NCBI RefSeq assembly: GCF_030013595.1 | Contig: NZ_CP122768.1 | Reading direction: 5' to 3' (one strand) | Length of the DNA: 64,000 bases | Source of the DNA: Escherichia coli | GTDB taxonomy: Bacteria; Pseudomonadota; Gammaproteobacteria; Enterobacterales; Enterobacteriaceae | In this document: positions 27,717-28,495 of the stretch, piece by piece | Numbering within the stretch: position 1 is the stretch's first letter | How the letters are laid out: every line of letters starts with the position of its first letter | Translations under genes and position numbers: made by a program | Notes under the pieces: model-generated | What the model was told of the DNA's origin: nothing | Database searches by the model: none | Seen by the model: the letters and a program-made list of their open reading frames with translations, nothing else

Positions 27717-27892
27717 GACGATTCCGTATTGGTGTTATTTTTGCAATATGCCAACAGGTACTGAAATCTTTGTCTAATAGAGATTTCTTATGACGCAGTA
27801 TTGTTGATCAATAATCTCCAGGCTTATCAGATAGGTTGAATTAACTCCGCTCCCTGGTTTTTAACATTACCCACCGCGCGCGATACCGGGTG

Positions 27893-28495
27893 CTAGGTGA
27901 ACTGGTTTGCTGGCACACAGCCACTGGTAGCGATTTCTGAGGCTTCTTTACCGCCAATATCTTGCCGCATCCATTCCCGCGCAGCTTCTGGCGACAGTAC
28001 CAGTGGGCGGCGGTCATGAATATCTACCAGACCCTGGTCTGCTGCTGCAGTGACAATCAAAAATCCTTCGGCTTCGTCACCGCGCTCGAACGGTGTGCTG
28101 CCTATCGCGGCCATAAAAACAGGTTGTCCGTCAGCGCGATAGATAAAATAAGGCTGTTTTTTGTCGCCTTCTTTTTTCCACTCAAACCAGCCGTCGGCAA
28201 AACAGATTGCCCGACCGTGTTGCCAGAGCGGTTTAAACATGCGACTGGTTGCGGCAGTTTCTACGCGGGCGTTAATCAGCGGCGGTTTATCCCACCATCC
28301 GGGAGCATATCCCCAGAAAACCGGATCCAGATGAAGGTGTTCATCACGTTCACTGAGCAGAAGAACTTTGGTTCCCGGCGCGACGTTGTATCTGCCAATG
28401 GGTTCGGGATCGTAGGGAATATCGCGTTCAATATCTTCCGCGAGAAGCGCAAGGTAATCTTCACGCGTTTGGGATTGGGCAAAGCGTCCACACAT
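27893..28495 (-). CDS. yedK: SOS-response associated peptidase (SRAP) YedK, terminated early by TAG
   Basis: ORF starts MCGRFAQ (catalytic Cys2); ends at TAG with 22 further in-frame sense codons to TGA at 27827..27829. Confidence 0.85.
   Translation of the reverse strand: MCGRFAQSQTREDYLALLAEDIERDIPYDPEPIGRYNVAPGTKVLLLSERDEHLHLDPVFWGYAPGWWDKPPLINARVETAATSRMFKPLWQHGRAICFADGWFEWKKEGDKKQPYFIYRADGQPVFMAAIGSTPFERGDEAEGFLIVTAAADQGLVDIHDRRPLVLSPEAAREWMRQDIGGKEASEIATSGCVPANQFT

Follow-up and report, generated by a model that had tools for sequence, protein, structure and literature searches.

A lineage-specific amber codon at Trp201 of Escherichia coli yedK, very probably formed at a Dcm methylation hotspot

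Why does yedK, which encodes an SRAP-domain protein, end early in one stretch of Escherichia coli DNA? The stretch analyzed here, referred to as the window, is 64,000 nucleotides of an E. coli chromosome that runs from msrP, via the fli operons and yedK, as far as pgsA-glyW-cysT-leuZ; from approximately 46.7 kb onward it is a prophage. The yedK ORF lies on the minus strand (28495..27893); it starts with the ATG at 28495 and comprises 200 codons and a TAG (27895..27893), so that its gene strand ends with ...CAG TTC ACC TAG. The first-pass annotation had stated that the frame stays open beyond this TAG to a TGA at 27829..27827, and this was seen directly in the ORF and its translation, the full-length frame being 28495..27827. 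It had also counted 22 further codons. The orphaned 3' end (27892..27827, minus strand) in fact holds 21 sense codons, HPVSRAVGNVKNQGAELIQPI, followed by the original TGA; the number 22 is correct for the protein, which is 22 residues short since Trp201 itself is gone. The statement that K-12 has TGG at the amber position was borne out by alignment with K-12 and the closest genomes.

To place the change, a 761-bp query around yedK was searched against 5,426 complete E. coli genomes, and it was matched in 5,377 of them. The closest complete genomes were those of the pig isolates HCP5S3_I2 and LCP30S3_I5, each with one base different over the 761 bp. The sole difference from HCP5S3_I2 was window position 27894, the middle base of codon 201, where the plus strand carries C>T and the gene strand G>A (gene nt 602). 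In the alignment, codon 201 was TGG in HCP5S3_I2, LCP30S3_I5, ST2747, and the outgroups GMF054 and K-12, and TAG in the window. The whole window was then aligned to HCP5S3_I2, and every difference was polarized with a sister strain and two outgroups. Over the 46.5 kb of chromosome, the changes of the window lineage itself amounted to 12 substitutions and one 1-bp deletion. The ratio of four transitions to eight transversions and the high non-synonymous share among these substitutions raised the idea that the window came from a mutator or was laden with errors. This idea was rejected, as independent assemblies have the SNPs of the lineage in common and so few substitutions cannot be told apart from a normal spontaneous spectrum.

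It could be asked whether the TAG is simply the normal stop of this lineage. The allele is indeed common to several assemblies of the same clone; however, it is derived with respect to the nearest relative and to all outgroups, and PGAP marks the identical allele as an internal stop in other genomes. The stop is in frame when compared with full-length orthologues, and the remainder of the gene is alignable; the designation "pseudogene by internal stop", in the sense used by PGAP, would thus fit the yedK locus of the window. We consider it very probable that the W201 amber is a genuine nonsense mutation, fixed in the lineage and made at a Dcm methylation hotspot.

The sequence around the mutated base pointed to its origin. 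On the ancestral gene strand, the sequence was ...TTC ACC TGG CAC...; it contains CCTGG, a Dcm site (CCWGG) that occupied 27893..27897 on both strands; the site has become CCTAG on the gene strand, and CCAGG has become CTAGG on the plus strand. The mutated G of yedK pairs with the inner C of the complementary CCAGG, and the direction of the change, polarized with four genomes, is C>T. From established knowledge, the inner cytosine of the CCAGG opposite codon 201 would have been methylated by Dcm, and the 5-methylcytosine would have deaminated hydrolytically to thymine, giving a T:G mismatch. Vsr very-short-patch repair acts on T:G mismatches at Dcm sites (PMC2715241). A mismatch that escaped this repair would be fixed by replication as CTAGG, and translation of the mutant yedK would end after residue 200. 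In natural E. coli and Salmonella populations, an approximately 8-fold excess of C>T at the Dcm inner C over other cytosines has been reported (Cherry 2018, as given in PMC9520237); PMC10710837 also cites that study. Judged from the motif, the strand, and the direction of the change, deamination of 5-methylcytosine at a Dcm site is most likely the cause of the yedK amber.

Both genes of this pathway are present in the window. On the plus strand, dcm (7215..8633) is an intact ORF for a DNA-cytosine methyltransferase of 472 aa with FPCQPFS and ENV motifs, and vsr (8614..9084) is an intact ORF for a very-short-patch repair endonuclease of 156 aa. The Dcm of the window lineage carries Q395H (window 8399), common to the same-lineage assembly GCA_021646965.1, and the Vsr of the window differs from that of K-12 by G108D.

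The yedK amber is not the only one in the window. The first-pass annotation had called it the second TAG nonsense change in an otherwise conserved gene, and the other one was located in fliP (minus strand, gene 16926-17663), where codon 87 is changed from CAG to TAG at 17405..17403 and the gene is truncated to 17403..17663. Here AAC CAG GTA has become AAC TAG GTA; the gene strand shows CCAGG>CTAGG, and the former Dcm site spans 17402-17406. Q87* leaves 86 of the 245 residues of this flagellar export-gate protein, and judged from this truncation, the window lineage is probably non-motile. Public assemblies index the 86-aa FliP product in 178 blocks, divergent strains included, and Q87* also occurs in strains approximately 98% identical to the window that have other fliP flanks and an intact yedK. 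When searched with the 40-mer of the window, fliP Q87* had no match among the complete genomes; with other flanks, the 86-aa product turns up commonly in drafts and in assemblies of SRA runs.

The reconstructed ancestral 46.5 kb contained 108 CCWGG sites, that is, 216 inner-C base pairs or 0.46% of the positions. These positions took two of the 12 substitutions of the lineage, namely the yedK and fliP ambers (binomial P(>=2)=0.0014); when only the four G:C>A:T transitions were considered, the probability of two Dcm-position substitutions was 0.0005, both values being post hoc, as there were two events only and the finding had been picked as a stop codon. When all 5mC positions in the genes of the window were enumerated, 100 outcomes were synonymous, 29 missense, and 49 nonsense, and all 49 nonsense outcomes were amber. 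Since CTAG is palindromic, deamination at CCAGG gives TAG on both strands; in-frame events at Dcm sites thus yield amber stops only, which explains why both nonsense changes of the window are TAG. In GCA_021646965.1, a private C>T was observed at the inner C of a CCAGG at window 20256 (fliK codon 297); it is synonymous and is a third event of Dcm signature in this clone.

Since the site is hypermutable, the W201 amber arises again and again in unrelated E. coli lineages. The TAG allele was searched for in the 5,426 complete genomes with a 40-mer chosen such that the mutant A lies within each of its possible 28-base seeds. W201* was found in 16 of them (0.3%), from pork, pigs, humans, soil, and seawater, and none belongs to the window lineage. 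The carriers include FORC_042, AR_0137, JNE132847, UTME-9, VCSW5, and FDAARGOS_944, among others, and in all 11 of the W201* records examined, the PGAP entry for yedK is a pseudogene, with "internal stop" given as the reason. The TAG on a K-12-type flank (TCC TAG) had no match in the 5,426 genomes. The allele sits on at least five haplotypes, which are 11 to 33 nt apart within the gene and whose differences lie close on both sides of the stop. Moreover, three pairs of TAG and TGG twins (window/HCP5S3_I2, VCSW5/VCSW7, and SRR5344731/O145 RM9154-C1) are identical over the 761 bp except for gene nt 602. These pairs, which differ at this base alone, speak directly for at least three independent and recent origins of W201*.

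One clade of approximately 12 complete genomes keeps W201*. The allele is fixed in several isolates and persists in this clade; therefore, it cannot be strongly deleterious. In one W201* clade (AR_0137, 005008, 52148, 32-4, and CH10268), yedL is absent, and an IS200/IS605 element with a TnpB gene and a tnpA pseudogene directly adjoins yedK at its 3' end, where it has taken the place of the last codons; the surroundings of the yedK pseudogene have thus decayed further. Relaxed selection on the orphaned tail was also considered, as SRR5344731 carries E217A and P221T past the stop. This was rejected, since its intact TGG twin O145 RM9154-C1 has both substitutions, which are thus older than the stop.

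What the stop does to the protein was then assessed. The truncated product still scored 163.7 bits against Pfam PF02586 (SRAP; gathering score 27.1), and it covered positions 1-184 of the 214-position profile; with Trp201 restored, the coverage was 1-214. Cys2 (MCGRF...), Asn75, Glu105, and His160 are all retained, and they were invariant or nearly so in an alignment of 57 homologues (31-58% identity), which were taken from a search of 1.84 billion representatives and chosen as full-length. Across these 57 sequences, residues 201-222 were better conserved than the rest (mean top-residue frequency, 0.557 versus 0.449), with V204 at 95%, V208 at 91%, N213 at 77%, and P221 at 75%. An AlphaFold (AF2) model built on the same alignment had a pLDDT of 93.6 and of approximately 98 in the tail; in this model, the last strand spans 199-203, and two short helices come after it, at 206-209 and 216-219. 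Given this position of the strand, the stop would halve the last beta-strand.

The published structural work gives a context to these residues. In the YedK-ssDNA structure, as described in PMC6821365, the last strand (beta12) lies in a flat sheet with beta1, beta2, beta7, and beta8; by way of this sheet, the N-terminus and the catalytic Cys2 face the DNA groove, and Arg206, Asn210, and Val211 are among the residues that contact the 3' side of the ssDNA. The same paper states that mutation of W67, W68, R77, T149, or R162 abolishes DNA binding; these five residues are all upstream of the stop and retained. A search of two YedK papers for C-terminal residues by name (W201, S205, and others) gave no hits. 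The truncation would accordingly be predicted to remove a conserved C-terminal segment packed beside the Cys2-bearing sheet, together with three ssDNA contacts. Since a conserved tail is lost, and with it the end of the last beta-strand and several ssDNA contacts, the function of YedK is probably impaired; by sequence and model, the 200-aa protein is probably destabilized or impaired, and W201* most likely makes yedK a pseudogene of recent date or at least a crippled allele.

It could be argued that the C-terminal trimming is tolerated and that the 200-aa YedK is a functional, neutral length variant. The four catalytic residues and most of the DNA-binding ones lie upstream of the stop, the upstream 200 codons show no further damage, and the allele, fixed in the lineage, is also kept by a clade of complete genomes; all of this agrees with such a variant. 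However, the part removed is the best-conserved one across the 57 homologues, all of which, having been chosen as full-length, extend through it. The strand that is bisected belongs to the sheet positioning Cys2, and R206, N210, and V211 contact DNA. Furthermore, every TAG lineage is shallow, as expected of a mildly deleterious allele. We thus regard a neutral trimming as unlikely. A different proposal is that W201* recurs through positive selection to lose or alter YedK, and that fliP Q87* does so likewise for loss of motility. The same nonsense change arose at least three to five times, fliP Q87* is very widespread (the 178 blocks mentioned above), and both lineage-fixed 5mC events are nonsense although only 23% of the 5mC positions can give a stop (P~0.05). 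Nevertheless, this P value is weak and was obtained post hoc, homoplasy is already predicted by an 8-fold hotspot, and the frequency of W201* is only 0.3% of the complete genomes; such selection appears rather improbable. That the repeated, independent YedK W201* and FliP Q87* changes are adaptive beyond hotspot noise is, in our estimate, highly improbable. If it were so, a 200-aa YedK that keeps Cys2 and is without the DNA contacts on the 3' side could form or reverse cross-links differently; alternatively, some niches could favor the loss of YedK, and Dcm sites would then serve certain genes as pre-set "off switches".

Two further proposals deny either the mutation or its effect. CCTAG could be CCTGG miscalled by nanopore sequencing or basecalling at a methylated motif; DNA modification is documented to cause strand-specific errors in nanopore reads (PMC11610603). 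The window assembly moreover has a private change of a kind that long-read assemblies produce in error. In the G-run of yodC (window 11308-11315), it has one G fewer than all relatives, including the same-lineage GCA_021646965.1, and this -1 frameshift alters the last ~10 codons of a 60-aa protein; being private, the loss is due either to mutation in the very recent past or to misassembly of the homopolymer. The yedK TAG, however, is shared. In the public assembly collection, 29 blocks list the identical 200-aa product, and it was read on at least 24 contigs of different sample origin. Most of these contigs are 20-50 kb long, which resembles short-read drafts; among their sources are two drafts from NCBI and SRA runs assembled by Logan. 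In four same-lineage assemblies (GCA_008326365.1, SRR30668384, GCA_021646965.1, and ERR4899786), the yedK TAG travels with other SNPs of the lineage: the first two are 99.99% identical to the window and both have the TAG, and the latter two share the other SNPs of the lineage, including the fliP amber. The nearest TGG genomes carry the same motif, yet no miscall occurs there. With at least 24 contigs in agreement and the allele present in independent assemblies of one lineage, the W201 amber is not a read error, and we hold a sequencing artefact to be exceedingly improbable. Full-length YedK could instead still be made, if an amber-suppressor tRNA or a programmed readthrough event carries translation past the TAG. 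The 21 downstream codons are intact and in frame, and two in-frame ambers in one window could hint at a suppressor background. Against this, the intact tail is accounted for by the youth of an allele that is one SNP from its TGG twin, and the three tRNAs within the window, glyW(GCC), cysT(GCA), and leuZ(UAA), have normal anticodons, with no CUA anticodon among them. The Dcm signature accounts for both ambers; since the two TAG stops match its prediction, a suppressor or recoding background is unneeded. We know of nothing that favors readthrough at the yedK TAG, and this proposal is hardly credible. The reading that we prefer is therefore a genuine amber produced by deamination at the Dcm site, with YedK probably impaired.

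The alignments also revealed differences elsewhere in the window. HCP5S3_I2 and LCP30S3_I5, and not the window, carry five derived hprS substitutions within 760 bp (window 1664-2425), four of them non-synonymous, as well as a derived pgsA Q182* (window 46193) and two derived substitutions in glyW, the tRNA-Gly(GCC) gene (window 46373/46375). These changes could reflect real selection, recombination, or a shared assembly error. The yedS/ompC-like porin gene (window 4296-5513, minus strand) is an intact ORF of 405 aa in the window; an 11-bp deletion (window 4477-4487) shifts its frame in the two nearest genomes, and in K-12 the gene is a pseudogene. At window 42700, yecU is without the ISVsa5 insertion that splits it in HCP5S3_I2. 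In the leuZ-adjacent prophage (46.7-64 kb), an IS3-family element with ORFs of 108 aa and 296 aa (window 58593-59905) occupies a position other than that in HCP5S3_I2 and is only 95% identical to the copy of this relative.

Both the Dcm mechanism and the W201* allele, which is annotated in RefSeq, are already known, and the case is one of ordinary gene decay. Its consequences concern one strain lineage, in which a gene for abasic-site protection is probably disabled and motility is probably lost via fliP. The yedK locus of the window should be annotated as a pseudogene, as PGAP does in other genomes. A Dcm origin would explain the TAG bias and the recurrence of nonsense changes in E. coli, and it calls for caution with suppressor or recoding readings of such stops. 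Moreover, the three single-base twin pairs provide a clean natural example of Dcm-driven homoplasy, and homoplasy of this type can mislead SNP-based phylogenies.

The comparison with known systems starts with the solved YedK structures (PDB 6KBS, 6NUA, and 2ICU). Residues 1-200 of the window product are nearly identical to them, including Cys2, Asn75, Glu105, and His160. In contrast to the solved YedK, which belongs to the YedK/HMCES type of SRAP abasic-site cross-linkers, the window product is without residues 201-222; it thereby misses one half of the last strand, both of the short helices, and the contacts made by R206, N210, and V211. The strains listed in RefSeq under "yedK pseudogene, internal stop" have the identical nucleotide change at codon 201 and the same consequence as the window. 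However, they carry it on other yedK haplotypes (20-29 nt differences) and have independent origins; in some of them, yedL has since disappeared or an IS200/IS605 element has moved in beside yedK. The amber hotspots in lacI classically described by Coulondre and Miller are reportedly CCAGG>CTAGG changes, with the same 5-methylcytosine mechanism behind them. They have in common with yedK and fliP the CCWGG motif, the inner C, the C>T direction, and the in-frame CTAG amber; unlike the lacI hotspots, which were found in selected mutants, the yedK and fliP ambers are standing variation in natural isolates, for which methylation and deamination are inferred. The hypermutation at Dcm sites described for natural populations (Cherry 2018) likewise consists of homoplasic C>T changes across E. 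coli genomes; that work, as represented in the papers citing it, is a genome-wide rate estimate, whereas W201* and fliP Q87* are specific instances.
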